Below are positions 42,401 through 62,047 of a DNA stretch of 64,000 bases, in pieces. The stretch is from a virus, in IMG/VR virus record IMGVR_UViG_3300034032_000013, positions 1 through 64,000 of that record; one strand, written 5' to 3'. Positions within the stretch are counted from its first letter, which is position 1. Each line of letters opens with the position of its first letter. Both the position numbers and the translations under genes were made by a program. Below the pieces are notes generated by a model that was given only the letters and a program-made list of their open reading frames with translations, ran no database searches and was not told the DNA's origin.

Positions 42401-44964
42401 GTGAATATGTATCTCGTATGATGAATACAAGAGATGCTGCTCGTATTAAAGAAGAGCTTCATACTTCTGCATTAGAATTAATTAATAATCCTTCGTTTGA
42501 TATTAGTAAAATGGAAGGAATGTTATATGATAGTACTAATACTAATAGTAGACTTATTCAAATTGTAATGAATATTATATCTAGTGTTAGAGAGAAAGTA
42601 ATATCACGATTTAATGCTAAAAATGCTGAATTAGGTAAACTTTATAAAGATTTCATTAATGAAAAAGGTAATCCTAGACCATCTGAATTGTATAAAAATA
42701 TGTATGAACAAGATGCTCAAGGTAATTATTATTTAAAAGGTGAATATAAAGTTGAATTTAGAGATAAATATATTAATGAATTTCTACCTTTAAATAAAGC
42801 GTTCTTTGAAGTACAAAAAAGATTTAAAGAAGAAGGTTTTTCTTTTTATGACTATAATACATTTCCTGAATTTATTAAAGTTAGAGATGCTCGTCGAAAA
42901 TGGTTGAAAGAAAATACTATTAAAGATGCATCTGATATTACTAAAAAGGCTTGGTTACCTCATCCTAAATATAAAAATAAAGATTTAACAGGTACTGAAG
43001 CTAGAGTATTATCTGAATTTAGAAATATTACTATTGATTCTGACCAAAATACAGGTGGTAAAAGAAGTCTTATTCGTAAAATTGATAATAAAGGTAATAA
43101 ATTATTTTTCTTTAAATTACCTGCACATTCTAAAACTGATTTTGAAAGACGATTAGAAGTTGATGTTAAAGGTTTAACTAAAGATAAATGGACTGATTTA
43201 ACTACAATTAAAGCAGATGATATTGGTTATGCTTATGGTGAAGCAATTGACTCAAAGAATGAGACTCTTAAATCTGTTAAAGTACATTTTAGAGGTAAAA
43301 TTGACCCTACTGAACAATCATTAGATTTAATGACAATGTATCGTTATGAGTTTTTAAATGGTGTAAACTATGCTGAAAAAAGTAAAGAAGAATTAACTCT
43401 AAATCTTTTAGCTGATATTTCTAAAAATAAAAGTTATATTAAACGTTCTAACAGGTCAGGTCTTGCAATGATGAATGTATTTGCTAAACGTGAACCACTT
43501 ACAACCTATGATGGTGAATTTTCACAAGAATATAAACGTATTCAAGGTATTATAGAAAGTAATATTTATGATATTACAAGTTATGCTGGTGGTAAATTAG
43601 GACCGTTAGATGTTAATAAACTTTCTAGTGCAATTAGTGGATATACAGCACAGGTATCAATGATATTTAATGCTGGTACAGGTGTAGCTAACGTTTTAAA
43701 CGGTACTACGCAATTATTTATAGAGTCACTAGGTAGTAAGTTCATTACTAAAAAATCGTTGCTTAAAGCTGAAGCTAAGTATAATGCTGACCTTCCTCAA
43801 ATTATGTCTGATTTAAGTAATCCACATAAGACTTCATTTACTAATCAAGTATTAAGAATGTTTGATACATTTGGTGGTTTCTCACCAGAACAACAAACTT
43901 TTCTTAAAAATACAATTGCTAGAAAATTAGGTTCTACTGAAAGTTTAAATGCTTTTCAAGAGATGGGTGAACATATGATGAATTCAGTTCTTACTATGGG
44001 TGTATTAGATACACTTAAAGTAATGAATGAAAATCATCAATTCATTGACAAAGATGGTAATGTTGTTGAAGAATCTAAAGCTGCATCATTACTTGATATG
44101 TTGAAACGTGATAGTCAAGGTGAACTTTATATGGATGAAAAGGTAGCGTATACTAATCATAATATGAATGTTAAATATCATAAAGGTGGTAAAGTACACG
44201 TTAATCTTCTTATTAAAAAGAAAAGTCACGATTTATTTGGTGTATATGACCCTAATTTCCAAAATGAGTTATATAAAACTTGGTATGGTAAAGCTATAAT
44301 GATGTTTAAGAAGTTCTTTATAGCAGGTGCTCAATACAGATATAAAGGTTTCCAAACATCTACTAAATCTAAAGAAGAATTATCTGATGAGGATTTAATT
44401 TATAACTCTGCTATCAAGGAATATGATGAAGGTGTTTATACATCACTTATTAGATTTTTTGCTCAAGGTGTAATACCAACTCTTAAAAATCTTAGTTTAT
44501 CTTATACAAAAGATTATTATAATAATATGACTGATTTTGAAAGAGCTAACTTACGTAAAGCTACAGCAGAGATTCTTGCAACATCTATATTAATTCCAGC
44601 AATTGGTATGTTATTAGCGGCAGCAGGTGGTGAAGATGATGACGATAAACTATGGTTTTGGATATATCAAACTCGTAGATTGGAATCTGAACTTTCACAA
44701 TTTAGGAATATTATTGAAGCAGGACGTTTAATTCAAAATCCTATTGCAGGAGTTAGAACTATTCAAAATGCTACAGGTTTCTTATATGAAGTGTTAACAC
44801 CACTTAACTTTATGCCTGATGATAAAGAAAATTTCTTCTCTTATTTAGATGAAAATTCTAAAGGTGAAAATATCCTTTGGAAGAAAACTAAAAAGATGAC
44901 TCCTATTATTAGTCAATGGGATAAAGATTATCAGACAATGCATAACTTTATTAATAAAAAGTAA
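39490..44964 (+). CDS. giant polyvalent virion protein with zincin metallopeptidase motif
   Basis: 1824 aa. HExxH is present as SFIHEVVHAQS (H629-H633, nt 41374-41388), with acidic EFVAEIYANAAF about 60 aa downstream. There is a C-terminal TM-like segment ILATSILIPAIGMLLAAAGG. TAATG overlap with the RNAP gene. Confidence 0.5.
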   Translation: MNCINKNTQEFKTLLEATKLPSIVLEMRISKWQENNGLDSYPSTEDIQHPSEVNFTLKAVNILTSDKGKEIFEKGKKAGWDLNKILTELQVPKEQKQLLLDLSITDREQLAVELAATYSYSVNINTTQKFDLEPGQEPDIDYEIIEDEDGMPIEMRPFSTTPIVNTKYYSNLTVPGGTNYTEQEISTPLITPSIKGHAQFATDKGIGWFRSDEQAGEKIGPGYENGLMDENGKIINSSVYKNIDSKTRRILEVQSDLFQKGRDKVNLVGLKSDLNSQEEDSFQRHLLETGQITQEEFNNPPIIESLFKENQFLQLLNKDSNWVTFFIKSIIQDSAKKGYEKVLFPSGNTASKVEGHETLENFVEQKQSRINYLEEKKKGEIEWVVEEAGGEEYKFSTENDANNFLNSKEFSEEFSKPTQYTKSGEYLGDIDREINQLTQEIKNVRTDGLSALKPIYDFYENKVQNIIKKQGYNPTRTTDEHGNDWFEITIDNTRDTSTIFAKKIEDLIDPNSENIFPNESNIRSSVIPDYSAEHSRILFNNKQGKITVDEILENILNNFNDLSPKGRELIEKSRRLVGRTGAKFKFISDAKLISKNTLMQIDGNTNTIEINRDRLKNFRPSLVVESFIHEVVHAQSIQALMNPQTFEEKEFKRLIDDKYRTYLDRQVDKELDRIGNYHPDLQSYGFTNEKEFVAEIYANAAFREELRQLDKENNTSFWKQFIEAVRRLFGIAKSTEANDLIEQVVDFVEQDRRDYQGMNLQRKLIFAKKTVEIPNLTSLAERLINLSNKAKDRMDQAYKRAQNNRDISPEKRAENLKDIQTVIDEMASFDDINQWKVITSYTQSLADKVNSLKVSFEKKDVTHDGLIKMINNYEDYLSSYDLLPGIQQLIGEARREQLSEEDLKDVNELDNIIRTFEGNHSRLLVDFKVAKEAQSIEILSDPRFNTKVETDNRIRLQKEYRDLKITGESMSEYVSRMMNTRDAARIKEELHTSALELINNPSFDISKMEGMLYDSTNTNSRLIQIVMNIISSVREKVISRFNAKNAELGKLYKDFINEKGNPRPSELYKNMYEQDAQGNYYLKGEYKVEFRDKYINEFLPLNKAFFEVQKRFKEEGFSFYDYNTFPEFIKVRDARRKWLKENTIKDASDITKKAWLPHPKYKNKDLTGTEARVLSEFRNITIDSDQNTGGKRSLIRKIDNKGNKLFFFKLPAHSKTDFERRLEVDVKGLTKDKWTDLTTIKADDIGYAYGEAIDSKNETLKSVKVHFRGKIDPTEQSLDLMTMYRYEFLNGVNYAEKSKEELTLNLLADISKNKSYIKRSNRSGLAMMNVFAKREPLTTYDGEFSQEYKRIQGIIESNIYDITSYAGGKLGPLDVNKLSSAISGYTAQVSMIFNAGTGVANVLNGTTQLFIESLGSKFITKKSLLKAEAKYNADLPQIMSDLSNPHKTSFTNQVLRMFDTFGGFSPEQQTFLKNTIARKLGSTESLNAFQEMGEHMMNSVLTMGVLDTLKVMNENHQFIDKDGNVVEESKAASLLDMLKRDSQGELYMDEKVAYTNHNMNVKYHKGGKVHVNLLIKKKSHDLFGVYDPNFQNELYKTWYGKAIMMFKKFFIAGAQYRYKGFQTSTKSKEELSDEDLIYNSAIKEYDEGVYTSLIRFFAQGVIPTLKNLSLSYTKDYYNNMTDFERANLRKATAEILATSILIPAIGMLLAAAGGEDDDDKLWFWIYQTRRLESELSQFRNIIEAGRLIQNPIAGVRTIQNATGFLYEVLTPLNFMPDDKENFFSYLDENSKGENILWKKTKKMTPIISQWDKDYQTMHNFINKK

Positions 44965-44969
44965 AAGTC

Positions 44970-45011
44970 AAAAAAAAGCCCCTATAGTCGTAATGACCGT
45001 AGGGGCTTTTT
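44970..45011. terminator. bidirectional terminator between convergent blocks
   Basis: aaaaaaaa-gcccctatagtc-gtaat-gaccgtaggggc-ttttt. The hairpin is flanked by an A run and a T run and sits between the last + gene and the last - gene. Confidence 0.75.
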
Positions 45012-45014
45012 GCA

Positions 45015-45296
45015 TTAAATCAATTCTGTAGCTTGAAATGTCTCAACAAAACTTTCTACCAATTTTGCGTGGTACGTTTTCTTTGTAGGCATTTGAGGTT
45101 CTTTACCTCTTAATATAGCATACGCTATAAATAAGTGCATAAGTCTCTCAGAATTACTAACAGTCACACACGATGCTGTATAAGCATCAACAGTTCTATT
45201 ACCTGTAAAGTAAACAGTTTTTCTCTGAGGTTTCAATTCAGTCTGTTCTTTAGATAATCTTTTAATCTCTTCTACAATCTTATGGAATCTTCTCAT
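45015..45296 (-). CDS. hypothetical protein
   Basis: 93 aa. ATGA overlap with the upstream PTH2-like gene. Confidence 0.6.
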   Translation of the reverse strand: MRRFHKIVEEIKRLSKEQTELKPQRKTVYFTGNRTVDAYTASCVTVSNSERLMHLFIAYAILRGKEPQMPTKKTYHAKLVESFVETFQATELI

Positions 45297-45634
45297 GATA
45301 ATGTTAAATTTAAGTTTTTAAATAATTTCTTGTGCAAATCCTCAGGAATTGCTTGAATCGTTATAGATGTAATTTCATTACCAATGTCAGGTTCTTCAAA
45401 TACAGTATACTTAATTCTTAAATCATCTAGTTTGGAAATCATAATATTCATCTTTAATTTAGAAGTTTCTAAACAACAAAGGTAATTTGATTGTAATTCC
45501 CAGTCCTTAAATTCAGGTCCATGTCTAGCTGCAAACTCAGCTAATCCATGACATGATTGAACCACTTTGTAACCAGAAGAGATGTCTTCTCGAACAATGA
45601 TGGTGAGTTTATCACCTTTTCTAATCTACGTCAT
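45293..45634 (-). CDS. PTH2-like (peptidyl-tRNA hydrolase 2 fold) protein with in-frame TAG at codon 3
   Basis: The track ORF starts at GTG 45565. The frame continues upstream as ATG ACG TAG ATT AGA AAA GGT GAT AAA CTC ACC ATC ATT GTT CGA GAA GAC..., which encodes KLTIIVREDISSGYKVVQSCHG. That matches the PTH2 N-terminal pattern (hydrophobic strand-VRxDL-xxG-K-xxAQ-xxHA). There is no ATG, GTG or TTG between the TAG and 45565. Confidence 0.45.
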
Positions 45635-45654
45635 AATAACAAATTTAATGTTAG

Positions 45655-45726
45655 CGACCTGTATGGGACTCGAACCCATAACCTGCGGTTTTAGAGACCG
45701 CTGCTCTACCATTGAGCTAACAAGTC
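45655..45726 (-). tRNA. amber suppressor tRNA, anticodon CUA (tRNA-Trp-like body)
   Basis: Minus-strand sequence GACTTGT-TA-GCTC-AATGGTA-GAGC-A-GCGGT-CTCTAAA-ACCGC-AGGTT-ATGGG-TTCGAGT-CCCAT-ACAGGTC-G. It has a 7-bp acceptor stem, 4-bp D stem, 5-bp anticodon stem and 5-bp T stem, with a TTCGAGT T-loop. In the anticodon loop C-U-[CUA]-A-A, U33 and A37 are in place. No CCA is encoded. Confidence 0.85.
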
Positions 45727-45752
45727 TTTTGGGAGAAATTAATCTCCCATTT

Positions 45753-46136
45753 TTATTTAGTTAAATACCAATATGTTAAAAATAATTGACAATAATGTAA
45801 GAATTGGTCAAAACCAATCCAACTGAAAGCACCAATATTTGGTATTGAACTTCCAAGTTCTTTTCTTGCAAATTTTCTGCTTACTATTTTACTAGTTATA
45901 AAATCTGTTATTGTATGCGCAATAAAAGTTATACCTATGAATTTCAGTGTGAACACTATAGAGTGGTCTAAAATTAACATAATTGGTATAAACCATAATA
46001 CTGAATACACAGCTGTATGAGTTAGTAAATCTGAAAGATTACTACTCTTACCTAAAGCCCATTTTTCATCTTGACAAATGAAATCATTTATCCAATGAAA
46101 TAATGCTATGAGTAATATTGCTTTAATTTCTATCAT
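45753..46136 (-). CDS. multi-pass membrane protein (DUF3307-like)
   Basis: 127 aa with 3-4 hydrophobic helices and an HWINDFICQ motif. Confidence 0.5.
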   Translation of the reverse strand: MIEIKAILLIALFHWINDFICQDEKWALGKSSNLSDLLTHTAVYSVLWFIPIMLILDHSIVFTLKFIGITFIAHTITDFITSKIVSRKFARKELGSSIPNIGAFSWIGFDQFLHYCQLFLTYWYLTK

Positions 46137-46137
46137 T

Positions 46138-46449
46138 TTAAATTAATTTTTCAGTTTCAACAACTGTTAAAATTTCAATTGATTCAATCGTATGAATACC
46201 ATACTCTCCATAAGGAATATAATTTTCTAAAAACTCAATTTCTTCTTCTGATAATTGTGGATATAAAATATGAGGGTCATTATCCTCATCTTGTATATCT
46301 CCTCTACCCCAAGATAAATCATAACTTCCAATATTAAGTTTACTTAAAATATCTTTTACTTTAATAATATCATCTTCAGTAATCTGAGTTTTTTTGTTTA
46401 TATAATCACCATCATTTGTATCTGCTTGAACTATAATATATTTTATCAT
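46138..46449 (-). CDS. hypothetical acidic protein
   Basis: 103 aa, 1 nt spacing on both sides. Confidence 0.6.
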   Translation of the reverse strand: MIKYIIVQADTNDGDYINKKTQITEDDIIKVKDILSKLNIGSYDLSWGRGDIQDEDNDPHILYPQLSEEEIEFLENYIPYGEYGIHTIESIEILTVVETEKLI

Positions 46450-46450
46450 A

Positions 46451-46663
46451 TTAAAATTTTACTAAGAAACTACCTTCTTTCAAAGATACATCTTGATTTA
46501 ACAACCAAATATCCAATTTATCTAATTTTTCATCATCAGAAAAATGACATTCAACATAAGTATATTCTTTTTTATATGTTGATAATATACTATCTCTAGT
46601 AAGTTCTTCTGGAATATCACTATAATTTATTACTTTAAATGTAATCTTTTTTACTTTACTCAT
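46451..46663 (-). CDS. hypothetical protein
   Basis: 70 aa. Overlaps the thyX stop by 8 nt. Confidence 0.55.
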   Translation of the reverse strand: MSKVKKITFKVINYSDIPEELTRDSILSTYKKEYTYVECHFSDDEKLDKLDIWLLNQDVSLKEGSFLVKF

Positions 46664-47381
46664 CTAAACTCATTATTAATTCTTTATACTTTTCACACTT
46701 TTCTTCAAATTTAATTCTATTATCAATAACTTTAAGTATATTTTCCAATTTACCTTCAGTTTCATTTTGAACTAAATCCCACATTACTTGAGCTATTTCT
46801 CGAATTTCCAATTGAGCATGTTCACTATTTCTAAGTTTAATAAAATTAGCAAAACTTCTCATATTGAATTGAATATCAACTTGAATTTGAGAACTATAAG
46901 TTTTAAAGAATCTAGCACTTTCTTTAGCTCTTTTACGACCTAATATAGGTGTTAAATCTTCTAAACATTGATGGTATAATTTATTACCCATTATATTAAA
47001 TCCCTCTAATATATCAATCCATCTTTCCCCTTGTTCATCTTGAATAACATCTTTTGATACTCTCGCAATATCGATATTCCAATCTTCGGGTAAATAATAC
47101 TTATCTTCTTTTAGCTCTTTATATCTAGCAGATTCACCATTAATACTAGCAATACGATGCTTTAATAATTGAATATGACTAGCTATTTCACTATCAACAA
47201 GAAAATGTACATTCACCTTTTCAAATGGAGTTTCGTGTTTATTGCTCCATAAAGTTTCAAGCAGATTAGGTATTCTCGCTCTTTTGCTATCAGTAAGTTC
47301 TCTCGATGTACTTGTCCAAGCACTTAAAGCTACTGTTTCATCACTACCATAAAAACCTAATAATTCTACTTTATTTGTCAT
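46656..47381 (-). CDS. thyX: flavin-dependent thymidylate synthase ThyX
   Basis: ThyX signature (R/K)HRxxSxxxxSxR is present as KHRIASINGESAR. The C-terminal LRNSEHAQLEIREIA element is also present. 241 aa. Confidence 0.8.
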   Translation of the reverse strand: MTNKVELLGFYGSDETVALSAWTSTSRELTDSKRARIPNLLETLWSNKHETPFEKVNVHFLVDSEIASHIQLLKHRIASINGESARYKELKEDKYYLPEDWNIDIARVSKDVIQDEQGERWIDILEGFNIMGNKLYHQCLEDLTPILGRKRAKESARFFKTYSSQIQVDIQFNMRSFANFIKLRNSEHAQLEIREIAQVMWDLVQNETEGKLENILKVIDNRIKFEEKCEKYKELIMSLDE

Positions 47382-47544
47382 TTACCGATTTATTGTATTT
47401 ATAGATTAACCATTCAATTTCGGATATTCTAGCATTTAATTCAACTATTTTTATATTATCATAAAATTTAGTGAATTTTGGTCGCATTGCAGTAGCTAAA
47501 TCTGATTTTAAATGGTTTAATCTATCGTTAAGTATCTTTTCCAT
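47371..47544 (-). CDS. small hypothetical protein (not in supplied ORF track)
   Basis: 57 aa: MEKILNDRLNHLKSDLATAMRPKFTKFYDNIKIVELNARISEIEWLIYKYNKSVNDK. Its ATG overlaps the upstream stop (TAATG at 47542-47546). Its 3' end overlaps the thyX start by 11 nt, filling an otherwise empty 160-nt gap. Confidence 0.5.
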   Translation of the reverse strand: MEKILNDRLNHLKSDLATAMRPKFTKFYDNIKIVELNARISEIEWLIYKYNKSVNDK

Positions 47545-47873
47545 TATTCATCTTGACTTTCTATTCTATCAATTATTGATGCCATTTTAAGTATAAGATA
47601 AATAACATTATCTCCAAATTTCTCATCTAATACTTTAATCGTTGGTAATTTACCTTCTACTAAATCATTAGTAATATCTGCAATAGATATTTCGTGTTTT
47701 AATAACATTCCATCCAATACTTTCTCACGTATTAACCCAGACTTCTGAGCACCTACATCAAAATTATGAAATGGATTATTATTACGTCTATATTCTTTTC
47801 CCTTTACAATAAGAGTTTCTCTAATCCCATTAAGGAATACATCTACTACTTCATCAAATCTCTTTTCTGTCAT
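47544..47873 (-). CDS. small helical protein, possibly MazG/DUF1599 (Nmad1)-like
   Basis: 109 aa. The segment KGKEYRRNNNPFHNF...LLKHEISIADI...VIYLILKMASIID has the feel of all-alpha NTP-pyrophosphatase-like domains. Unverified. Confidence 0.25.
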   Translation of the reverse strand: MTEKRFDEVVDVFLNGIRETLIVKGKEYRRNNNPFHNFDVGAQKSGLIREKVLDGMLLKHEISIADITNDLVEGKLPTIKVLDEKFGDNVIYLILKMASIIDRIESQDE

Positions 47874-48244
47874 TATTCTTTTGGTTTATAATGTTTATCA
47901 CATAGTACAGTAACCCATCCATCATTTCTAACTTTACCAGGTTCTCCACATTCTTCACAAGTGTGGTAAGAAAGTTCTTCATACTTATCGACTATCAATC
48001 TTTGTTCTTGAGTTAATCCATTAGTATAAAATCTTAATCCACCAAACTTTTCTTTAACTTGAGTAATATGCTTATCCCAACCAGCTTGTATTAATTCTTC
48101 AATTAAATCTTTTACTAGTTGATACCAACCTTTACCTATACTAAAAAATCCAGCAGACTTAATAGGTGGTTTGTTTGTAAACATACCATTCTCTAATCCA
48201 CCAATACTTTCAAGATATTCTTCAAATTCTTTTTCTGTTACCAT
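47873..48244 (-). CDS. hypothetical protein with C-terminal zinc-ribbon-like Cys/His cluster
   Basis: 123 aa with HTCEECGEPG...LCDKH. Confidence 0.5.
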   Translation of the reverse strand: MVTEKEFEEYLESIGGLENGMFTNKPPIKSAGFFSIGKGWYQLVKDLIEELIQAGWDKHITQVKEKFGGLRFYTNGLTQEQRLIVDKYEELSYHTCEECGEPGKVRNDGWVTVLCDKHYKPKE

Positions 48245-51207: not shown

Positions 51208-52127
51208 TTATTTAATTTCACAACCATCTGGTCCACAAGCTAGATTTTCACCTAATGAAGTATTATCAGCTAGTTCAATTACTTTAGTCAAATCAACATC
51301 CTTTAATGTCAACATCATCTTTTCGTAAGTTTCTTTGCTACAATCTTCAAATGGTGTTTGTTTATATGTACCACCATCATATGGTAATACAGATAATCCA
51401 TTATAATACTCCTTATTAGCCCACATCCATTCTCCTACAATTTTCCATTCATCAGGTCGCACTGATACTGTACAAGATACATTGTGTGTATTTTGTCCTT
51501 TAACGTGACCTGTCTTAACCCAGTCACGGGAAATTAATTTAACTCTTTCAAGTAAATTCAATGTAGCTTCATGCCGTGTAATCGCTCCTTCAGGGGCTCT
51601 TTGTGGTACTGATATTACTGCTGTAGTCTTAGGACTAAAATATTCATCTTCCAGAAGCTCTGGGTGGTAGATTGATAAGTAAGAATATAATGCTTCATTC
51701 TTATTTATCCTCATTCTACGAATATAATAATCATTATGCCAAGCGTGAATACCTGAACTTGTACCTAATACGAGACTAGTAGTACCTGCTGGTTTAACAG
51801 CGGTAGTTCTAGCTGCTGAATTGATACCTAGTTCTTCTGCAAGTTGTTTATTTTGCTCAATTACAATTTTAGATGCTTCTTCATAATTTAATGCGAGGTT
51901 TGGCTCGGAAGCTATTCCCGTCATTGAAACTCCTAATAAAGCATCTTTCTCAGTATTCTTTCTCCAAATATCACGAAGATAATGAAAGTCAGTATATGAG
52001 GCTTGTAATGTTGCAATATATGATGCCGCTTGAGCACGTTCATTCAAATCAGATTGGTCTTTAATATCACCCATTCCTATCTCAACCAAATTACAAAATT
52101 GGTATGGACGGAGAGCAATTTCACAAC
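51208..52127 (-). CDS. ribonucleotide reductase, exon 2 (class II, monomeric RTPR-like)
   Basis: Begins (C)CEIALRPYQFCNL, then VKPAGTTS and LPYDGGTYKQTPFE, and ends with a C-terminal CGPDGC redox pair. No start codon precedes the conserved CEI...FCNL segment; TGA lies at 52129-52131. Confidence 0.7.
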
Positions 52128-53023
52128 CTCACACTGTAGAGTTACATCAATAATATCTACTCGTGCGCTGGACTATCGCATACGATATGTCTCCAAGTTT
52201 TATCTTTTCTAATAAAATCAATTACATAATTTTTGACATTATATATATCTGCAATTTCATTATTTGATAATCCTTCTTTTATTAGTTTACATTTAATACA
52301 TTTTACCTGTTCTTCATTTAATAACGCTTTACCATTATTTGAACCAACAGATACATTTTTGTATGAATATTTATTAGCTACTCTTGATTGTTTAGCTCTT
52401 TCAGAACGTTTATATTTAGAATCTTTTAATTTTATACCTTCTTTAGTTTTAATTGAAGTATTAATAGAATGTTTTTCCTTATTTTCAGATATTTCGTACC
52501 ATTCTTTTTCAACTCCCAAATTACCACCTTTCTGTGAATTCCAACCAATATTTTGTTTATATCGTAATTGTCCTTCAATCATTAAAGCATCTTTTAATGA
52601 TAGATTATCATAAAGAATTAAAATTTCTAAATTATTCCATCCATATTTTTTTATTGCATTAGTAAGATGTGTTTTCTTCTTATTTTTTTTATGAGATTTA
52701 ATTCTTTCTTCATAATTAGAAGTTAAGCCAATATAACCTTGACTTATTTCATCACCTTTTTGTATAGTATGTTCTAATAAATGTATCCAGTAGATACAAT
52801 ACACATCGTCTCCCTCGCTTAGTCTCTCAGGCTGCACAGAAAATACTTCTTTAATAATTAAAGTAATTTCTTGCTTGCCCCCTGTCGCTGTATTGTCAGC
52901 TTCCAAGTCAATCAGAGGGAGTTTTAAATCCGCATTATGTGTCTTCATAAATAATAATATTTGTTATACAAATATAAGAAATTTTTATAATAATTCCTAA
53001 TTATTTTGAAACTTTTTTAGTTT
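52128..53023 (-). mobile_element. group I intron (896 nt) with internal GIY-YIG homing endonuclease ORF
   Basis: P1: exon AAUCCGU (53030-53024) pairs with GCGGAUU (52933-52927), with a U.G pair at the splice site. P10: exon 2 GUUGUG (52127-52122) pairs with CAUAAU (52939-52934). An R-like element GAGAGACUAAG (about 52817-52830) and an S-like element GAUAGUCC (52170-52177) give P7 GACUA/UAGUC. The intron ends in G (52128). The spliced frame is continuous (1863 nt). Confidence 0.75.
52157..52948 (-). CDS. GIY-YIG homing endonuclease (intron-encoded)
   Basis: Shows VYCIYWI ... GYIGLTSN ... R..SH ... E spacing typical of GIY-YIG. It has a C-terminal helix-turn-helix-like tail (LSNNEIADIYNVKNYVIDFI). 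The ORF ends in TAG. Confidence 0.8.
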   Translation of the reverse strand: MKTHNADLKLPLIDLEADNTATGGKQEITLIIKEVFSVQPERLSEGDDVYCIYWIHLLEHTIQKGDEISQGYIGLTSNYEERIKSHKKNKKKTHLTNAIKKYGWNNLEILILYDNLSLKDALMIEGQLRYKQNIGWNSQKGGNLGVEKEWYEISENKEKHSINTSIKTKEGIKLKDSKYKRSERAKQSRVANKYSYKNVSVGSNNGKALLNEEQVKCIKCKLIKEGLSNNEIADIYNVKNYVIDFIRKDKTWRHIVCDSPAHE

Positions 53024-53966
53024 ACGGATTAGTTCCCCAATCTTTATCATTGGTTAAATAAATCCCTGGTTCACCCGAACCTGATGCTTCAATACGTTCC
53101 CAAACTTTATCAAAAGTTTTCTTGTCAATCTTATGTCTTAATAATACAACAGAGTTATTAGACCTTCCTAACTCAGGCATAATTTCCCACCAATTACCTG
53201 CTTTACAATTTAACATAGCATCGCTATCTAAATCAAATAAACAAATCATTGCTGCTCTACGTATACCACCTGCTAATACTGCATCTGCAATAAAACATTG
53301 TATTCTATGACATTCAATATCAGTAAGTTTACTACCATTTTCTTTTTCACGAAGAATAGCTTCAATTTTCACTAAAGCAATCCTAAGTGGTTCAGGTCCT
53401 GGAGCCTTACCACCAGCTGTAACTAATGCAGCACCTTTTGGTCGAATATCTGATAAATCAAATTCAACATGAGAATTCATACTACCTGTATAAGTTTTCA
53501 TCAACACTTTAATGGCATCAGCCCAGCCTATAATAGAATCCTGAACAACATATCGTTTAGTTCTATTAGAAGAAGGTTTTCTTATCTCTGGTAGTTTATC
53601 TATGTGATGATTCTGGACAGAATATCCCACACCCGTACCACCCAATAATAGAAACATAGTCTCAGAGAAACTATGTATGCTATCAACTGGTAAAAACGCA
53701 CAATTATATATTCTTGCATTGTTTAATTCGATTGCTCGACCTCCGAATTGAAGGGAGCGCATAGAAGGTAATACCTTCTTGGTAAATACATATTCTTGAT
53801 AAATTTTTTCAATATTTTGTTGCAGTTTTGGATATTTTTTAATATGCATCTCCATATTTCTCTTCACAAGTTCGTCCCAAGTTTCCCTCCTTTCTAATTC
53901 GGGCTTAAACTTAGCATACTTACTGTGAACAGTTATGTCTGATAATATCTTTTTATCTACTTCCAA
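53024..53966 (-). CDS. ribonucleotide reductase, exon 1
   Basis: The N-terminal part has VLPSMRSLQFGG and GGTGVGYS and ends ...DWGTNP. This is the first half of the NxCxE active-site loop. TTG is the only available start (53966). Confidence 0.7.
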
Positions 53967-53988: not shown

Positions 53989-54420
53989 TTATTTTCCTGT
54001 TGAACCAAATCCACCGTTTCCACGGTCAGTATTATCAAGCTCGTCTACTTCTTCAAATTCCATTTGTGGTACTGGTAGAATTACAATTTGTGCAACTCTC
54101 TCTCCCACTTGATATTCCACACTATGTGGAACAGTTTTAAATCGAAGCATTACTTCTCCTCGATAATTTGAATCTACTACTCCAATCGAATTAGCCAATA
54201 TATGACCTGTTTTAGATACTGAACTTCTTGGAAAAAGTAATCCAACATATCCTTCAGGTATTTCCATTGCTAACCCTGTACCAAATTCGGTATAACCATA
54301 TGAACCTGTATCTACAACTTTTTTAGTAGTTGCAGTTAAATCCATACCTGCATCACCTTGTAATGCGTAACTAGGTGTTACGGCTTTTTCATCTAACTTC
54401 TTAAACTTTACTTTTAACAA
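53989..54420 (-). CDS. dut: dUTP diphosphatase (trimeric dUTPase)
   Basis: Motifs AGMDL, GVVDSNYRGE and a C-terminal RGNGGFGSTG. Confidence 0.9.
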   Translation of the reverse strand: MLKVKFKKLDEKAVTPSYALQGDAGMDLTATTKKVVDTGSYGYTEFGTGLAMEIPEGYVGLLFPRSSVSKTGHILANSIGVVDSNYRGEVMLRFKTVPHSVEYQVGERVAQIVILPVPQMEFEEVDELDNTDRGNGGFGSTGK

Positions 54421-54988
54421 ACTCTTCTATTTTAAATGTTTCATATTCTTGTTCAACATACTCTCCAAGTTCCTGATTTACATCAAGAACAACTTTATGC
54501 TCTTTTGAACTAAGTTCCTTTTCAATTTTTTCTTTTAATTTTGGTGATTTGTATAATATATCTTTTACTTTTTGTAAAAAAGGAATACCTAGTGTATTTC
54601 CTGAATAAACTTGACCCCAGAAATCTAATATCAATTGTTTAGCGTCTTCTCCAAATTTGGAATATTGGCTATTGTAAAGATATGCGTATTCATTTAGGTA
54701 TTCTTCAGGAAATCTAAAGATGTATATTACCTTGTTATCCAAATCTATATGCTTAACAAACAATGGGTTATTAGTTAACTTATGTTCGTAAGCAGTAAAA
54801 TCTGGATTCTTAAATGAAAATTCGTGCAATATATAAAAACAATTCTGCAATTCAGGGTCTTCCCCAAACATATAAGTATTGATTAAATATGGCATAAACT
54901 TTATATCAAGAGATAGCACCTGAGCTATCAACGGTAATAAATAAGTCTTTGACTTATTATATCTAGGTTTCATTATTTTATCACTCAT
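54401..54988 (-). CDS. hypothetical protein
   Basis: 195 aa ORF, overlapping its neighbours at both ends. Confidence 0.6.
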   Translation of the reverse strand: MSDKIMKPRYNKSKTYLLPLIAQVLSLDIKFMPYLINTYMFGEDPELQNCFYILHEFSFKNPDFTAYEHKLTNNPLFVKHIDLDNKVIYIFRFPEEYLNEYAYLYNSQYSKFGEDAKQLILDFWGQVYSGNTLGIPFLQKVKDILYKSPKLKEKIEKELSSKEHKVVLDVNQELGEYVEQEYETFKIEEFVKSKV

Positions 54989-56711: not shown

Positions 56712-57406
56712 TCTATTAATTCTTTATGGTAATGATGAACATACTTATCTAAATCATAAAATATTCTTGAGTCTTTTGGTAAAACAATTTCGTCGTTTGA
56801 AAAGATTTTATGTTTCTTTTCATCTATAAATTGCTTATAATAATTACAAGTATTATCAAGAAATACAAAAGCAATATTTTGATGTGTAAGATTAATATGT
56901 TTTATCACAAACCTTGTGAAATGAGCCCAACATTTATGGTGAGAATTATGAAATTCTGATGTTAGACTCGTATTTAACATTAAACAACCTTGTTCCGCCC
57001 AACTTTCTAAAGTATAATCAAATGTTTTCTTATTATCCTGATACTTATAAGTAGTATTTTCAACACACGTTTTAATGTTATTAAGAGCAGGTGGTATCAT
57101 TATAGTATCTTCTGCTACTCCATATGCCAGTCCATTAGACTTCAAATTAGAATAAGGTTGTTTACCTATAAATATTACCTTTAATTCATCATATTTACAC
57201 ATACGAAATGCCCTGAATACATCATCTTTATCACAAGGATAAATCTGTTCAGGAGATGCATATTTTTGATTTATAAACCACGCTAAATTATCCATATAAC
57301 GTTGAATTATAATCTGTATCAAAGGTTGTGCCCAAGTACCTAGTTCATCGCTGTAATTAACCTTTAAACCAGTCTTATCTATTGGATTGATGTGTTCTAC
57401 TACCAT
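56705..57406 (-). CDS. degenerate UDG-fold protein (catalytic residues lost)
   Basis: Collinear with family-1 UDG: IGKQPY (vs GQDPY, Asp to Gln), NGLAYGV, PPALNNI, MLNTSLT, NSHHKCWAHFT, FVFLDNT. It lacks the C-terminal HPSP-type His motif. TAATG overlap with the amidoligase gene. Ends in TAG. Confidence 0.6.
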   Translation of the reverse strand: MVVEHINPIDKTGLKVNYSDELGTWAQPLIQIIIQRYMDNLAWFINQKYASPEQIYPCDKDDVFRAFRMCKYDELKVIFIGKQPYSNLKSNGLAYGVAEDTIMIPPALNNIKTCVENTTYKYQDNKKTFDYTLESWAEQGCLMLNTSLTSEFHNSHHKCWAHFTRFVIKHINLTHQNIAFVFLDNTCNYYKQFIDEKKHKIFSNDEIVLPKDSRIFYDLDKYVHHYHKELIEW

Positions 57407-59256
57407 TATACCATTTCCTCATTAGATTCTTTAATAGGGTCAACAAATTCTAAATCTTGTTTGATAGCATTTGCTTTCGATTGATTATGTAAATGTAACA
57501 TAGCATCATCAAGCATTTGTTTTGATAAATTTACATATGATTTAGAATTTGAATAAGTAGAATTATATATCATATTTTTATGTGCACCTTCATCCATTTT
57601 ATCTGTCCAAACTTTTGTTACAAGTTCTACTTCGGCAATTGGATTAATAGTTATAGGCGCAGATATATAATCATCTTCCTGCATAGATACTTTAGGAGCA
57701 GATTGTTTTGCACGTTTTATCTCTTTTAAATTTATAGGAATATGAATATCCCTTTTATTAAAATCAAGATATTTTGAAACACGAATATGCTCCTCTTTAC
57801 CGATAATATCTCCTCTACAATTATTAGATTCAGTCACCTGTTTCCTAACACTTAAATAGTCATCCATACACATAATTATACTATCTCTATTGGATACATT
57901 GGAAGTATTTAAATACTCTGTAATAATACGACGTAAATCTTTACCATATAAAAAATTCTTGTTTTCAAGAATATTTTTCTGATACTTTTTAGTAAAGTTA
58001 ACCAAGATTGCTGACATTAATATAAATGGAACAATTTTATTTACCTCATAAGTTGGAGTATGTATTCTAAATTCAACAGTTGTTTTGTTACCAAATATCA
58101 ACGGAATTAAATTATGAATGTAATACCTTGTATGAATATTCCACTTTTGATTGTTATTTGGGTCAGAAGGGTGAACTTTTACTTTATCTAAATCATTATT
58201 ATATGCAGCAAAAGGTTGTCCTTGTGATAAATATTCAAATAAAACATTAAAGTTTTCATTAATATTTTCACGAGTAATTATAGCATCCATTCTACTTAAT
58301 AAATCAAATATAGGATATGGTTTAGAATAATTTTTATTCTTAACTTTAAAATTATATTTTTTATATAAAGGAAACATTTGATACATATCATCTTGTACAA
58401 GACAAGTTAATTTAAAAAATGCAAGAATGAATTCTTTTGTTCTAGGAACATTTCCAATATGTAAGTGTAAAGAACAAGTATTATCATAAACAGTTCGTTC
58501 CTTTAAAGGTTCCAACATATCGACTACTGTTTGTAACCCTTTTTCTCCTGAAAGTGGTATAGTTACATATTCTATACCACTTATACTTCCATCTCGTAAA
58601 GGTATTAATCCCACTTTGTTCAAAATTCTATCAGGAATAAATCCTCTAGTAGTTTCAAACTCCAAACCAAAAGATACATCTTCTAAAATTGGAGCATAGG
58701 TTTTAACAACATTACTTATTCTACTTTCATAAAATTTATTATACTTCTCTGTAAAAGCATCAGTAATCCCTCTTGAGTCATAAGGTAGAGATGTTTTATA
58801 CTCTTGTGAAGGTATAATTATTTTATTAAAAGCATTTGCAGGCAATCTTTTAATGTGATAGTATATACCTGATGATAGTTCTTCACGATATTCTCTATTA
58901 TTTTCCAACAATTTCTCGTCTAAAATATAATAGTGTTCACCATTTTCTAAACCTATTTCAGCTTTACCTTCCGCATCAAAATGCCCAAAAATAGGTTGAT
59001 TATTTTCAAAACCAACAATACCATTTACTAGGTTATTTTTATTCATTGTATATTCTTTTGTACTGTGGTTAAAAACGATATTACCAGTTTCGGCTCGATA
59101 ACAACTTTTATTAATAATGTAACAATCTCCTGAATTCTCTTCATTGGTATTACCTATTTTGTAATATCCTGTTGGAAATTTTCTACATTGTGATATTGGT
59201 AATTTCTCGCCTTTAATAGTAATTACTTCTTTTTGCTTACTCATTTTCTTTTTCAT
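57406..59256 (-). CDS. amidoligase (glutamine-synthetase-fold COOH-NH2 ligase, Amidoligase_2-like)
   Basis: 616 aa. Core: FGLEFETTRG ... DGSISGIEYVTIPLSG ... CSLHLHIGN. Confidence 0.65.
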   Translation of the reverse strand: MKKKMSKQKEVITIKGEKLPISQCRKFPTGYYKIGNTNEENSGDCYIINKSCYRAETGNIVFNHSTKEYTMNKNNLVNGIVGFENNQPIFGHFDAEGKAEIGLENGEHYYILDEKLLENNREYREELSSGIYYHIKRLPANAFNKIIIPSQEYKTSLPYDSRGITDAFTEKYNKFYESRISNVVKTYAPILEDVSFGLEFETTRGFIPDRILNKVGLIPLRDGSISGIEYVTIPLSGEKGLQTVVDMLEPLKERTVYDNTCSLHLHIGNVPRTKEFILAFFKLTCLVQDDMYQMFPLYKKYNFKVKNKNYSKPYPIFDLLSRMDAIITRENINENFNVLFEYLSQGQPFAAYNNDLDKVKVHPSDPNNNQKWNIHTRYYIHNLIPLIFGNKTTVEFRIHTPTYEVNKIVPFILMSAILVNFTKKYQKNILENKNFLYGKDLRRIITEYLNTSNVSNRDSIIMCMDDYLSVRKQVTESNNCRGDIIGKEEHIRVSKYLDFNKRDIHIPINLKEIKRAKQSAPKVSMQEDDYISAPITINPIAEVELVTKVWTDKMDEGAHKNMIYNSTYSNSKSYVNLSKQMLDDAMLHLHNQSKANAIKQDLEFVDPIKESNEEMV

Positions 59257-61186
59257 TTGACACTATGAATGTGCTTAAAATTCCGTTAATGTTATCTATT
59301 GTTTTGATAAATTCTTTTGCTATAGAATTTGGCAGATAACCTTCAAGATTTTTCTTAGTTTGATTTAAACTTACAATTGGTTCAGTCAATTCTTCATTAA
59401 TTAAGTTACTAACGATTTCGTCTTCTTCTTTACCTTTCATTTCTAAGTCATCACCAGTATAATCATCTTTAAAATCTTCTTGGTCTTCTTCAACCTTTTT
59501 CATAAAAATAGCATCTGATTGTTCCATAATAGCTGCTGTTTGAGCCTCTTCGTGAGCAAATAAACTTTTCTCTACTCCTTCAAGTACATCTTTTTTAAAA
59601 GGTACGATAGCAACATCTTTAACATCTTCTTTTTTAGACATTGAAATAGGAAGTTGAATAACATCTTTAACAGGGTTTTTAACATCTAATTGAATGTCAA
59701 CACGAGTTCTCATATTTACTAAATTACCCTTACTAAATTCATATACTCTTTCAGAACCTAACGGACAGATATTACCTGTATATAACTTACCATCAAAGTA
59801 AACCTTTTGGTCAGTCATAGGTTCCATTGTCATAGGTGGTACAGGATGTTTAGCTACAATAGATAAATCAATATGATTAAGATACTTTTGATTTTTGTCT
59901 AAAGTTGCTAATCTTTGTTTCATTACATTATAATCATAAACAGTTCTGAGCATTACACCTTGTATAAAATAACAAAGCATTGGTACCTGATGTAATTTAA
60001 ATGGTATAAAATCTGTTGCAGGTTCTACTGTACGATTTCTATGAAATTCTCCATTGATAAATGGTACTCCTGTATATGATTTAATATCTTTTAAAGCCTC
60101 ATCTCTAGTTTGACCCATAGAATGAAAACCGTAACCAGGAATATAAACATATACACCCGTAATAACGTGCCCATTCCTTTTGTATCTTCCTTGATTATAA
60201 TAGGGTTTTCCTTGTCGTAATGGAAGTGGGATGAAGAGGTCTTCTGTGTGAATGTTAACGGTTGATGACATTCCTGAAGTTCTTCTACTGGGATATACCT
60301 CACTAATATCAGATGTCTTAGTACCATAAGTTACAGTATTATGTCTGATATTATTAACATTTATAGGTGATGTATAAGATACATTTTTACTAACATAAGG
60401 TACATTCTGCCAAGTATTTCTTCTACTTACTAAAAGTTTAGTGGCATTTTTAAAATCACCATCTGTTATACAATATACTGTATTATTATCAATTTGAAAA
60501 GCTTGTGTTTCATCAGCTCCTAAAGCATAAAGACTTTCTATCATTGAAGAAAAGAATGTTGAATTTTTACTTCTTTGATATACGCATAAGGGTCTTTCAA
60601 TAGTCATATTAATACTCGTGTCCCAATCTTTTGAAGCACCTGAAAATAGATAAATCTTATTAGGTTCTTCTAACCAAGTCCAAGCTAAAGCTGCACCACC
60701 GATGTATTTACTTAGTACTGTATAATTTTTTTCTTTATACATAATTTCCAGTAATATTTCACTATCTATTTTCTTACGAACATATTTAATGTTATTACTG
60801 AAATATTCTTCTTCAATATCGATATTGTACATTTTAGCAAGCTCTTCATAATTTTTAAGAGTACCATTATGGCAACCAATAAATTCATAGTTACCATTAT
60901 CTAAAGCACCGAAACCAAAAGGATGAGCGTTAAAAGCATTTATTGCACCTACACTAGATTGTCTTGTATGACCAAATATAGTAGGTACACTCTTCGGCTT
61001 AATGTGCCGCTTTTTTATAAAATCACTATATAGCTTATCTTTATCAAGACCTAAATATATTTCACCATCATATGTTAATCCGCAAGAGCTTTTACCTCTT
61101 TCGATATTAAATAGACCTAATATATTCATTTCACCAACTGATAAGCTATTTACATTTTTTGTTACGTGTCCAAAAATTCCGCACAT
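59237..61186 (-). CDS. class II (Ntn) glutamine amidotransferase domain protein with long C-terminal extension
   Basis: The N-terminus MCGIFG (Cys2 nucleophile) is followed by ERGKSSCG, GHTRQSS, AHPF and CHNGTLKNY, as in PurF/AsnB/GlmS GAT-II domains. About 400 aa of unknown sequence and an acidic tail follow. Confidence 0.7.
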   Translation of the reverse strand: MCGIFGHVTKNVNSLSVGEMNILGLFNIERGKSSCGLTYDGEIYLGLDKDKLYSDFIKKRHIKPKSVPTIFGHTRQSSVGAINAFNAHPFGFGALDNGNYEFIGCHNGTLKNYEELAKMYNIDIEEEYFSNNIKYVRKKIDSEILLEIMYKEKNYTVLSKYIGGAALAWTWLEEPNKIYLFSGASKDWDTSINMTIERPLCVYQRSKNSTFFSSMIESLYALGADETQAFQIDNNTVYCITDGDFKNATKLLVSRRNTWQNVPYVSKNVSYTSPINVNNIRHNTVTYGTKTSDISEVYPSRRTSGMSSTVNIHTEDLFIPLPLRQGKPYYNQGRYKRNGHVITGVYVYIPGYGFHSMGQTRDEALKDIKSYTGVPFINGEFHRNRTVEPATDFIPFKLHQVPMLCYFIQGVMLRTVYDYNVMKQRLATLDKNQKYLNHIDLSIVAKHPVPPMTMEPMTDQKVYFDGKLYTGNICPLGSERVYEFSKGNLVNMRTRVDIQLDVKNPVKDVIQLPISMSKKEDVKDVAIVPFKKDVLEGVEKSLFAHEEAQTAAIMEQSDAIFMKKVEEDQEDFKDDYTGDDLEMKGKEEDEIVSNLINEELTEPIVSLNQTKKNLEGYLPNSIAKEFIKTIDNINGILSTFIVSNEKENE

Positions 61187-61210
61187 TTATTTTTATATTT
61201 TTAATTATTT

Positions 61211-62029
61211 TTAAGCCACTTGTAGTGAATATTCACCAATTTTCTCTAATAATTCTATTGCTAAAGATTTATTATTTTCGTTAATTGCTTTAACAATCTG
61301 TTCAGAATATTTATCACTTAATTCATCAACCAATCCTGAATTTACAAGATTAATTGCTTCATAAGTAGTATTCCAAGCCCAAGCTATTAGTTCGTCTGTT
61401 GCAATCCAGAAATTTGATGGTGTACGATACTCCATACCATATGGTTTAAATCTGAAACAACCAGCTTTACCATACAACTCTTTACGTCTATCATCTTTAT
61501 CTAATGCTAAAGACTTCAAGCCTACAGTCATATCCATCGCTTTAACTAATCGTTCCACTGTTTCATCAGCTTCTTCCATAGTCATTTCAGATTTATCAAA
61601 CCCAATATGAATATGACCACCTGCACTTCGCATATTACTTTCAGCATTTGGTGGTTCATTCATACCTTGAGTATAAACATTAAAATCAGGGTCACACCCA
61701 AATTCTTTAGCTTTATCAGAATCCAATTCTTTTTCAGCTAATATAGCAGATGCTGAATAATTAGGTTTACAACCCATTGCAGCAGTGATAATAGTCAAAT
61801 GGTTTTTTACGAAATTGATACTTTCAGTAAATTCTTCAACTGTTTTAGCAGGTGGAATACAAAATTCCATTAACACATTATCTTCTTGGATAGCGTGTCC
61901 TTTTTCACTAATAGGTTTTGGTTCATCTTTACTACCACCAATTAGACCAATTGCTGATACAATTTCTCCATCTCTTTCTAAGAACAATTCTGGGTCACAA
62001 CCAAGTGTGATATTATTAATTTTTTTCAT
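61211..62029 (-). CDS. phage-type COOH-NH2 ligase (type 2, GCS2/glutamine-synthetase fold)
   Basis: 272 aa: GCDPELFL ... QEDNVLMEFCIPP ... AGGHIHIGF ... YRTPSN. It resembles the phiEco32-like amidoligase family, recalled from memory. Confidence 0.5.
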   Translation of the reverse strand: MKKINNITLGCDPELFLERDGEIVSAIGLIGGSKDEPKPISEKGHAIQEDNVLMEFCIPPAKTVEEFTESINFVKNHLTIITAAMGCKPNYSASAILAEKELDSDKAKEFGCDPDFNVYTQGMNEPPNAESNMRSAGGHIHIGFDKSEMTMEEADETVERLVKAMDMTVGLKSLALDKDDRRKELYGKAGCFRFKPYGMEYRTPSNFWIATDELIAWAWNTTYEAINLVNSGLVDELSDKYSEQIVKAINENNKSLAIELLEKIGEYSLQVA

Positions 62030-62047
62030 TTTTTATAATTTTTAAAT

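Follow-up and report, generated by a model that had tools for sequence, protein, structure and literature searches.

A suppressor tRNA(CUA) gene and a stop-gated PTH2-like gene form a putative translational switch in crAss-like and other phages

Suppressor tRNAs with and without a recoded genome

Suppressor tRNAs have been documented in phages with a changed genetic code as well as in crAss-like phages that retain the standard code (PMC7886860; 10.1101/2021.08.26.457843; PMC10607447; PMC12386605). In the recoded phages (code 15, TAG to Gln, or code 4, TGA to Trp; crAss-like, Lak, Agate, Jade, and phAss-1 phages), translation of the phage genes depends on the phage's own tRNA. A study published in 2025 asked for what reason "non-functioning" CUA tRNAs are retained in diverged Zeta phages (PMC12386605); this study and PMC7886860 suggest anti-host effects or incipient recoding and report no target, and PMC12386605 mentions an aminoacyl-tRNA hydrolase gene only within a list of tRNA metabolism genes. 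Here, we analyzed a 64,000-nucleotide stretch of viral DNA (positions 1 to 64,000 of IMG/VR record IMGVR_UViG_3300034032_000013; hereafter, the window), which contains a gene for a tRNA with the anticodon CUA. To judge from comparison of related loci, this tRNA and its neighboring gene, encoding a protein similar to peptidyl-tRNA hydrolases of the PTH2 family, probably constitute a conserved two-part translational switch, in which the PTH2-like protein is made only if the suppressor works. We found no description of this cassette, or of a hydrolase as the target of a suppressor tRNA, in the full-text literature, subscription-only papers being outside the scope of the search.

The window derives from a crAss-like (Crassvirales) phage, as indicated by PHROG matches to the major head protein (2.7e-145) and portal (1.4e-97) and by a match to the crAss muzzle protein PF25731 (E = 4.7e-223). 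Identical genes are present in a 104,255-bp contig (ena:ERZ27253069:k141_718216; locus L002), with matches to PF23898 (Crass_capsid), PF25710, and PF25650. L002 extends the window by 8.3 kb to the left and a further contig, L107, by 7.2 kb to the right, the latter being 100% identical over the shared 14.7 kb, so that ~79.5 kb of a genome of ~104 kb were available. A megablast search with positions 44000-48000 against 50,697 phage records retrieved no near-identical phage.

This genome shares with the recoded phages a stop-complementary tRNA, a low GC content, and open reading frames (ORFs) that mostly end in TAA (43 of the 49 main ORFs in the window, with three each ending in TGA and TAG). It differs from them in that they carry in-frame stops in tens of late, structural, and lysis genes, whereas the structural genes of the window have none. 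Plus-strand virion genes in the standard code tile positions 1-44964, including ORFs of 1349, 1518, 2188, and 1824 amino acids, which bears out the statement of an earlier note on this DNA that the giant late ORFs are uninterrupted. Reading TAG as a sense codon raised ORF coverage of the window merely from 0.913 to 0.927. The same note had recommended searching the rest of the genome for in-frame TAG codons: the 15.5 kb of flanking DNA from L002 and L107 showed dense standard-code coding, no tRNA gene, no recoding of structural or late genes, and ~5 further genes ending in TAG. Thus, recoding of the code 15 type, with in-frame TAG in many late, structural, and lysis genes, was not detected in ~79.5 kb of the genome. 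With Zeta and other standard-code crAss-like phages, the window phage shares the retention of tRNA-CUA without visible recoding, and several of the related loci described below (L008-L012, on contigs of 95-180 kb with 20-25 tRNAs) resemble Zeta-type phages. The difference is that a specific, conserved, and cognate target can be named here: a single nonstructural gene next to the tRNA, with the stop within its first ~10 codons.

The tRNA gene and its stop-gated neighbor

The elements concerned are arranged on the minus strand as follows.

45655..45726, minus strand: tRNA with anticodon CUA (amber-suppressor type) and G73, CCA not encoded; ARAGORN and Rfam RF00005
45635..45654, minus strand: A/T-rich 20-nt spacer CTAACATTAAATTTGTTATT from the tRNA 3' end to the ATG of the PTH2-like gene; from the sequence
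45626..45634, minus strand: start and gate ATG ACG TAG, amber codon at 45626-45628, next codon ATT (context UAG-A); translation MT*IRKGDKLTIIVRED, with the stop as an asterisk
45293..45625, minus strand: remainder of the PTH2-like gene past the gating TAG, 110 codons and a TGA stop; from Pfam, PHROG, and fold

The tRNA had been placed at 45655-45726 in the earlier note and described there as a clean cloverleaf with the anticodon CUA, and both programs agreed. ARAGORN called a single tRNA in the 64-kb window, with anticodon cta, at minus-strand positions 45654-45726, and RF00005 matched 45726->45655 over model positions 1-71 of 71, at 72.5 bits versus a gathering score of 29 (E = 6e-14), with no non-canonical pairs flagged. 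It is also the sole tRNA in the ~79.5 kb. In RNA letters, it reads GACUUGU-UA-GCUC-AAUGGUA-GAGC-A-GCGGU-CUCUAAA-ACCGC-AGGUU-AUGGG-UUCGAGU-CCCAU-ACAGGUC-G, with stems of 7/4/5/5 bp including a U4-G69 wobble, a variable loop of 5 nt, and the T-loop UUCGAGU. The 7-nt anticodon loop CUCUAAA holds U33, the anticodon 5'-CUA-3', and A37. The label "tRNA-Pyl" in the ARAGORN output is simply the name this tool gives to a CUA anticodon.

The earlier note had further taken the tRNA body to be tRNA-Trp-like, an assignment that our comparisons did not support. In blastn searches, the best matches of the window tRNA in Escherichia coli were tRNA-Thr and tRNA-Asn (~76% identity over partial length) rather than tRNA-Trp, and the closest non-suppressor phage tRNAs (~70% identical) were a mixture of Ile, Met, Arg, Gln, and Trp tRNAs. 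The bacterial (E. coli) Trp identity set comprises G73, A1-U72, and G5-C68. Only G73 and A9 of the window tRNA fit Trp identity; its acceptor stem has G1-C72 and U5-A68. A Trp-derived suppressor of the su7 kind is not supported by these matches and base pairs. Suppressor tRNAs of related loci were 62-81% identical to the window tRNA and resembled it more than the non-suppressor phage tRNAs did, and their discriminators were mostly A73, in some cases U73, versus G73 in the window. Which amino acid is inserted is probably immaterial, given that the stop falls in a variable tail and that Thr, Ser, or Ala takes its place in ungated relatives.

From its ATG, the gene downstream of the tRNA reads ATG ACG TAG ATT AGA AAA GGT GAT AAA CTC ACC. 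The first conventional start codon after the TAG is a GTG, which yields the 90-amino-acid product called in public databases (P0001). All conventional start codons of the ORF are located downstream of strand beta-1, which spans residues 6-12 after the TAG, and the database calls of 83-90 amino acids lack beta-1 and part of alpha-1. As read from the sequence, production of the whole fold from a canonical start requires initiation at the ATG and read-through of the TAG at codon 3. Of the targets that the earlier note had considered for the tRNA, the adjacent gene is thereby borne out as a candidate, carrying an in-frame TAG at codon 3 that is retained in relatives.

Several lines of evidence connect the product with the PTH2 family. 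The window protein matched phrog_1866 (2e-10), matches to Pfam PF01981 were recorded for the homologs P0004 and P0009, and a family profile retrieved the Protein Data Bank (PDB) entry 24bt_A, "peptidyl-tRNA hydrolase" (E = 3e-5). An AlphaFold2 model based on an alignment of 18 sequences (pLDDT 91, pTM 0.85) was compared with the PDB by Foldseek, and the top 12 matches were all members of the Pth2/Bit1 family, including 1q7s, 1xty, and 3erj (TM 0.70-0.80, E ~1e-6). On the strength of this model, the window protein has the Pth2 alpha/beta fold. In the profile alignment, the Lys of GYK, the Asp of EPD, and the Thr of xTA align with K, D, and T of 24bt_A, and the Asp and Thr are invariant across the family. 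With reference to the study of S. solfataricus Pth2, we take these to be the catalytic positions of the predicted hydrolase.

Both coding strands of the ~79.5 kb were scanned for an ATG followed by 0-9 codons, a TAG, and an ORF of >=60 amino acids. This returned the PTH2-like gene, out-of-frame noise at 16902, and an ambiguous start of the dUTPase gene (53989-54420). Upstream of the latter, positions 54427-54444 on the minus strand begin the reading ATG AAA CAT TTA AAA TAG AAG AGT TTG TTA AAA GTA (MKHLK*KSLLKVKFKKL). This could be a second TAG-gated start, but it was set aside: the TTG is a plausible start, the Pfam domain begins after it, the reading runs into the gene upstream, and chance alone would be expected to give one hit of this sort. 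A hairpin 9 nt past the gating TAG (GGTGATAAACTCACC, 45602-45616) was likewise rejected as a read-through-stimulating element. It occurs in one subclade only, that with GD(K/F)(I/L)T, has undergone no compensatory changes, and is accounted for by the codons for Gly-Asp-x-Ile/Leu-Thr, of which it is probably a by-product. Read on the plus strand, this hairpin precedes a T-run and looks terminator-like.

Stop and anticodon across related phages

For comparison, 77 related loci with DNA were collected from ENA, Logan, NCBI, JGI metagenomes, IMG/VR, and GenBank phages and grouped into 51 clusters at 80% identity. The IMG/VR loci were missed by a single-protein search and recovered with the family alignment as the query. 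At the protein level, 23 homologs were retrieved, many of them called at just 83-96 amino acids. The "full-length" call of P0002 (MTQIKIGD...) fails to translate in code 11, its Q being a TAG in the DNA. An in-frame stop between the ATG and beta-1 was present in 42/51 clusters, at codon 3 in 18 of these, codon 4 in 10, codon 5 in 6, and codon 2 or 8-10 in the remainder. A second in-frame stop elsewhere in the PTH2-like gene was seen only in L048. Every close relative examined has the same gated design, and two apparent exceptions turned out to be gated as well: P0004 reads ATG AAC AGT AAA CAA TTC TGG TAA GTG, and P0013 reads ATG AGA AAG ATT TAG ATG with a CUA tRNA upstream. Gated starts in relatives include the following.

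L004: MK*IKSGD
L005: MT*IKKGE
L006: MT*IKIGD
L007: MKK*IKKGD
L008: MK*IKEGD
L009: MKKGDELVG*VGNEF
L010: MKKDLINI*TGNEF
L012: MTKTGI*TGNEF
L013: MKKDTEY*VNKGD
L017: MK*VTKGD
L031: MK*KFITIL

In most listed close relatives, the 3' end of the tRNA(CUA) lies 25-47 nt before the stop codon, a distance of 25-30 nt in the window phage and L004-L008. The design extends to distant carriers at 31-43% identity, namely, the huge phages LR756500/1/2 and LR745206 and Tenacibaculum phage pT24, and to many IMG/VR contigs of 10-480 kb. Altogether, the PTH2-like family comprises 1,736 clusters at 50% identity (E <= 1e-3). With the patterns searched, a scan of 185,579 reference genomes found no cellular homologs; the family was found in phage contigs only. 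In pT24 (L043; LC168164, ~194092-195033), ATG AAA TAG is followed by a 314-codon ORF with a PTH2-like domain and a long C-terminal extension. The coding sequence BPT24_235 is annotated there from an internal start and lacks the PTH2 domain; probably, the TAG misled the annotation. Two Prevotella Lak megaphages (L041 and L049) have PTH2-like genes without a clear N-terminal gate, and an ochre-type tRNA(UUA) is located 0.5-0.6 kb upstream; in Lak-B4, ATG AAT ATC TAA lies four codons ahead of the normal ATG. Inside a 17-gene tRNA array of L006, ARAGORN called a permuted "tmRNA*" (780-1267), which may be a false positive.

That the neighboring tRNA reads the stop is suggested, first of all, by the correspondence of stop and anticodon. 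By cluster, we counted 28 TAG-CUA pairs, three TAA-UUA pairs (L011, L105, and L034), one TAG-UUA pair, which is compatible through U34 wobble, and no TAA-CUA pair (Fisher p = 0.013 in an earlier subset and ~8e-4 by hand calculation for the full table, with clusters treated as independent here and below and shared ancestry ignored). A suppressor tRNA was present in the fetched flank of 32/42 gated versus 2/9 ungated clusters (Fisher p = 0.004). In addition, the base following the stop is A in 31 and G in 11 of the 42 gated clusters, against a purine background of 60% at first codon positions (p = 7e-10), and a 3' purine is a favorable context for amber suppression in E. coli. The start registers agree too. 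Gated MA*IKEGDKLYI and MS*IKYGD correspond, codon by codon, to ungated MATIKMGDKLYL, MASIKMGD, and MVAIKAGD, and ungated MATIKMGDKLY has a sense codon where gated MA*IKEGD has the stop. Because these registers match, the ATG before the stop is the homologous start codon. In LR756501, a Shine-Dalgarno sequence (AAGGAG) is located 9 nt before the ATG preceding the TAG and not before the post-stop codon; the 20-nt spacer of the window (45635..45654) contains no Shine-Dalgarno sequence.

Some unusual loci concern stops other than TAG. L034 (4981-5054) and L036 (1854-1927) carry a tRNA scoring 56 bits with Rfam, whose 8-nt anticodon loop GUUUUAGU contains UUA; it lies downstream of a TAA-gated PTH2-like gene (MKEKEFT#VIKGD) and may be an expanded-loop ochre suppressor. 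L033 has a TGA-gated gene, and its 9.7-kb contig holds no tRNA.

The tRNA itself has been exchanged. The CUA tRNAs of L004 (9815-9889) and L015 (1348-1421) are 67% identical, whereas the adjacent gene and spacer share 94% and 95% nucleotide identity, respectively, and the upstream flanks are unrelated. Similarly, the spacers of L004, L007, and L015 are 91-96% identical although their tRNAs differ. On the basis of these alignments, the tRNA is replaced at a fixed junction, such that anticodon and position are kept but not the tRNA lineage. We propose that tolerance of almost any residue in the variable N-terminal tail accounts for the turnover of tRNA bodies and discriminator bases.

This pattern bears on whether the gene encodes a decoding tRNA at all. 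Phage tRNA genes can also serve as att sites or as decoys. A reading of the window gene as an att-site remnant, a decoy for tRNA-targeting defenses, or a pseudogene could appeal to the lack of an encoded CCA end, but the cloverleaf is canonical, its 72.5 bits come with no flagged mispairs, the scan of window genes revealed no integrase, the CUA or UUA anticodon is kept across bodies as little as 62-81% identical to the window tRNA, and the anticodon covaries with the stop of the neighboring gene. We therefore regard this reading as hardly credible.

A further possibility is that the tRNA serves a general reassignment of TAG, in progress or abandoned, and that the TAG of its neighbor is just the first or last neutral recoded codon. 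Where relatives of recoded phages keep the standard code, their suppressor tRNAs have been read as steps to recoding (PMC7886860; bioRxiv 10.1101/2021.08.26.457843), TAG is a minority stop in the window (3/49 genes), and the distant carrier LR756501 has a second in-frame TAG and is genuinely recoded. A neutral codon, however, should fall anywhere in any gene, while here it falls within the first ~10 codons of one gene in 42 clusters that span crAss-like, jumbo, and huge phages, and no other convincing gene of this kind exists in the 79.5 kb. Moreover, diverged lineages keep the pair without gaining TAGs, a puzzle also raised in PMC12386605, and the tRNA is swapped while anticodon and target are kept. 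These observations render incipient or relic recoding highly improbable as an account of the locus. In LR756501 itself (L048, locus 2501-2794), the N-terminal gate ATG TCG TAG ATT is combined with a second in-frame TAG within the domain, and two tandem CUA tRNAs are located 2.4 kb downstream of the PTH2-like gene; L048 is a genuinely TAG-recoded carrier of the cassette.

More closely tied to the position of the stop is an interpretation in which ATG and TAG delimit a mini-ORF leader, the hydrolase being started after the stop by re-initiation or from a non-AUG codon, and the adjacency of the tRNA reflects clustering of tRNA metabolism genes. The stop is followed by ATT in 20/42 clusters and by GTG, ATG, or ATA in 5 others. 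Minigenes of two codons, the lambda bar elements among them, have a functional tie to peptidyl-tRNA hydrolase. Where a phage has a large tRNA array, the gene lies inside it, and in the mycobacteriophages Bxz1 and Myrna, the Shine-Dalgarno spacing favors the GTG after the TAG. On the other hand, at least 15 clusters have a non-initiating next codon (GTA, GTT, ACA, AAA, AGT, AGC, AAC, or GCT). A leader need not be in frame, yet the stop is always in frame and matches the ungated start register. Neither the match of stop and anticodon, nor the co-occurrence of the suppressor, nor tRNA replacement is predicted by a leader. Array clustering cannot explain the adjacency, because the suppressor is the sole tRNA in the window phage, L004, L005, L007, and L013. 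We thus consider a mini-ORF leader very unlikely.

Besides the disregard of shared ancestry in the statistics, several observations weigh against a gate opened by the suppressor. In many lineages the post-stop codon is ATT, GTG, or ATG, so that re-initiation or a non-canonical start is possible there, and in Bxz1 and Myrna, with the spacing described above, the TAG may merely sit in the Shine-Dalgarno spacer. Ten gated clusters have no suppressor tRNA in the available DNA, mostly short contigs, and two ungated lineages have a CUA tRNA nearby. The match of the window protein to PF01981 (21.1 bits, E = 3.9e-4) is below the curated cut-off of 23 bits. Lastly, ~8/72 genes (~11%) of the window phage end in TAG, and a strong suppressor would extend the respective proteins. 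The two mycobacteriophages were left out of the gated counts. Bxz1 gp154 (L042; NC_004687 94756-95130) reads GAAGGC ATG TAG GTG, with the GTG as the annotated start of a "peptidyl tRNA hydrolase"; in Myrna gp84 (L044), which reads GGAGGC GTG TAG GTG, the TAG directly precedes the annotated GTG start. A CUA tRNA is found 0.5-0.7 kb downstream in both, annotated as "tRNA-OTHER" in Bxz1 and "tRNA-Ser" in Myrna.

Partner gene, possible function, and known forms of gating

Two further elements flank the pair.

45015..45296, minus strand: p93, a conserved partner gene of 93 amino acids, overlapping the stop of the PTH2-like gene by ATGA
45730..45749, plus strand: terminator-like hairpin TGGGAGAAATTAATCTCCCA and, after it, TTTTTATTTA, separating the tRNA from the DUF3307 gene upstream; from a consensus scan

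Found by tblastn directly downstream of the PTH2-like gene in ~30 related crAss-type loci, p93 is probably translationally coupled to it via the ATGA overlap. Its alignment shows an invariant IKRLS..Q..LKPQRKT motif, and its AlphaFold2 model consists of three helices (pLDDT 86). Searches of Pfam and PHROG gave no match for p93, and no fold match was obtained in the PDB at E <= 0.001. As far as can be read from gene order and sequence, the cassette has three parts, the suppressor tRNA, the stop-gated PTH2-like gene, and p93, and the pairing recurs in many unrelated phages. The p93 protein of the window (P0024) is identical to an NCBI entry filed under an "Allosphingosinicella sp." metagenome-assembled genome, and a 104-kb phage contig was probably binned into this bacterial assembly. 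The terminator consensus scan returned five sites versus 0.5 expected in shuffles; the hairpin at 45730..45749, a putative terminator, would be oriented against plus-strand (antisense) transcription.

We envisage the following course of events. Situated at the distal end of a minus-strand gene block, the tRNA would be co-transcribed with the PTH2-like gene, and processing of its 3' end would leave a 20-nt leader on the mRNA. A ribosome initiating at the ATG would meet the UAG at codon 3. Where no suppressor is active, release factor 1 (RF1) would terminate after the dipeptide and no enzyme would be made. Once matured, provided with CCA, and charged by a host synthetase, the tRNA would compete with RF1, such that the UAG is read as sense. 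Read-through would then give the full 113-residue protein with the PTH2 fold and, through the ATGA overlap, p93. As the stop is placed in the variable N-terminal tail before beta-1, almost any inserted amino acid should be tolerated, and the output of the cassette would report suppressor activity.

What such a switch would be for is the weakest step of our proposal. We prefer the view that hydrolase output is scaled to suppressor activity and would serve either for the clearance of peptidyl-tRNA that arises through drop-off and read-through or for the timing of its expression. Host UAG stops may be a further site of action of the tRNA, and the cassette may conceivably have a role against tRNA-targeting host defenses. 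It is conceivable that read-through of host UAG stops, harming host or defense proteins, is in fact the main purpose, with the gated hydrolase as a secondary sensor or means of clean-up; this alternative differs from our proposal in purpose and not in the decoding step. A host-directed role has been proposed for crAss-like suppressors (PMC7886860 and PMC12386605), a peptidyl-tRNA hydrolase would be a plausible remedy for drop-off or stalling upon read-through, and the phage itself makes little use of TAG stops. Then again, the sequence gives no indication of host targets, and the phage still ends ~11% of its genes in TAG. Protection of these genes by a following TAA was considered and rejected: a TAA occurs 0, 3, and 4 codons after the three TAG-ended window genes, but with a further in-frame stop no more than 4 codons away in 59% of all genes, this backing is not significant. 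On balance, we regard a primarily host-directed function as unlikely, though by no means far-fetched.

It is tempting to speculate further that the cassette is a self-contained and mobile homeostat of nonsense suppression, in which the PTH2-like enzyme, perhaps with p93, acts on the aminoacyl or peptidyl ester of the suppressor or on read-through products. As suppression would be the sole route to the enzyme, this loop would set the read-through level in the infected cell. It would then be a natural tRNA-based feedback controller common to crAss-like, jumbo, and huge phages, and possibly mycobacteriophages, and the ancestral foothold of genome-wide recoding. We consider this extended reading, taken as a whole, distinctly unlikely.

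A suppressor-dependent gate would have several implications. One dedicated and conserved target may explain why non-recoded phages keep suppressor tRNAs. It also suggests a stepping stone to genome-wide recoding, since a single target would keep the suppressor under selection and make later in-frame stops survivable. If our proposal is true, the cassette represents natural, gene-specific gating by amber suppression with a cis-encoded tRNA, and it links nonsense suppression to peptidyl-tRNA recycling in phages. Routine annotation is systematically wrong at this gene, which is called at 83-96 amino acids without its initial strand and a portion of its first helix. The cassette is present in culturable phages, namely pT24 and possibly Bxz1-type mycobacteriophages.

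The minus-strand genes of the window (64000-45015) are of the nucleotide metabolism and replication type and include genes for ThyX, uracil-DNA glycosylase, dUTPase, ribonucleotide reductase fragments, a helicase, and amidoligase and glutamine amidotransferase proteins. Three ORFs at 51208-53966 (minus strand) look like a ribonucleotide reductase gene split by insertion of a homing endonuclease or intron. The first, of 314 amino acids, has the alpha and class II insertion domains of ribonucleotide reductase; next come an ORF resembling GIY-YIG endonucleases (52157-52948, with TAG as its stop) and one of 293 amino acids without matches. Positions 57406-63939 (minus strand), together with 1-7247 of L107, encode an amidoligase, class II and class I glutamine amidotransferases, a COOH-NH2 ligase, and ATP-grasp and GGACT proteins, a cluster that is a peptide- or amide-modifying module.

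The product of the gated gene shares the fold of Pth2/PTRH2 (Bit1; 1xty, 3erj, and 1q7s), with a TM of 0.70-0.80 and with the motifs GxK...QxxHA and (E/K)-D-x-G...T-A aligning to 24bt_A. It differs from these proteins in its low sequence identity (13-20%) and in the invariant motifs SNYLCCLE and HKxLFKN, which are the phage family's own. Regarding regulation, two known systems offer parallels. In prfB, encoding release factor 2, an early in-frame UGA is escaped by +1 frameshifting, and the gene senses its own product. As in prfB, an early stop in a gene for a translation factor would tie the yield to competition at that stop; here, however, escape would be by a cis-encoded suppressor tRNA. Of an autoregulatory circuit, the phage locus shows the first half, an early in-frame stop with an outcome that would hinge on a component of translation. 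The Streptomyces bldA gene encodes a tRNA-Leu(UAA) that reads the rare sense codon TTA and acts in trans on scattered regulators. As with bldA, where a single specialized tRNA licenses the translation of a small number of genes containing its rare codon, the phage tRNA would license its target, but in the phage cassette the gated codon is a stop, and tRNA and target are tightly linked. By analogy, then, the cassette resembles prfB and bldA gating in its logic and is a member of neither.

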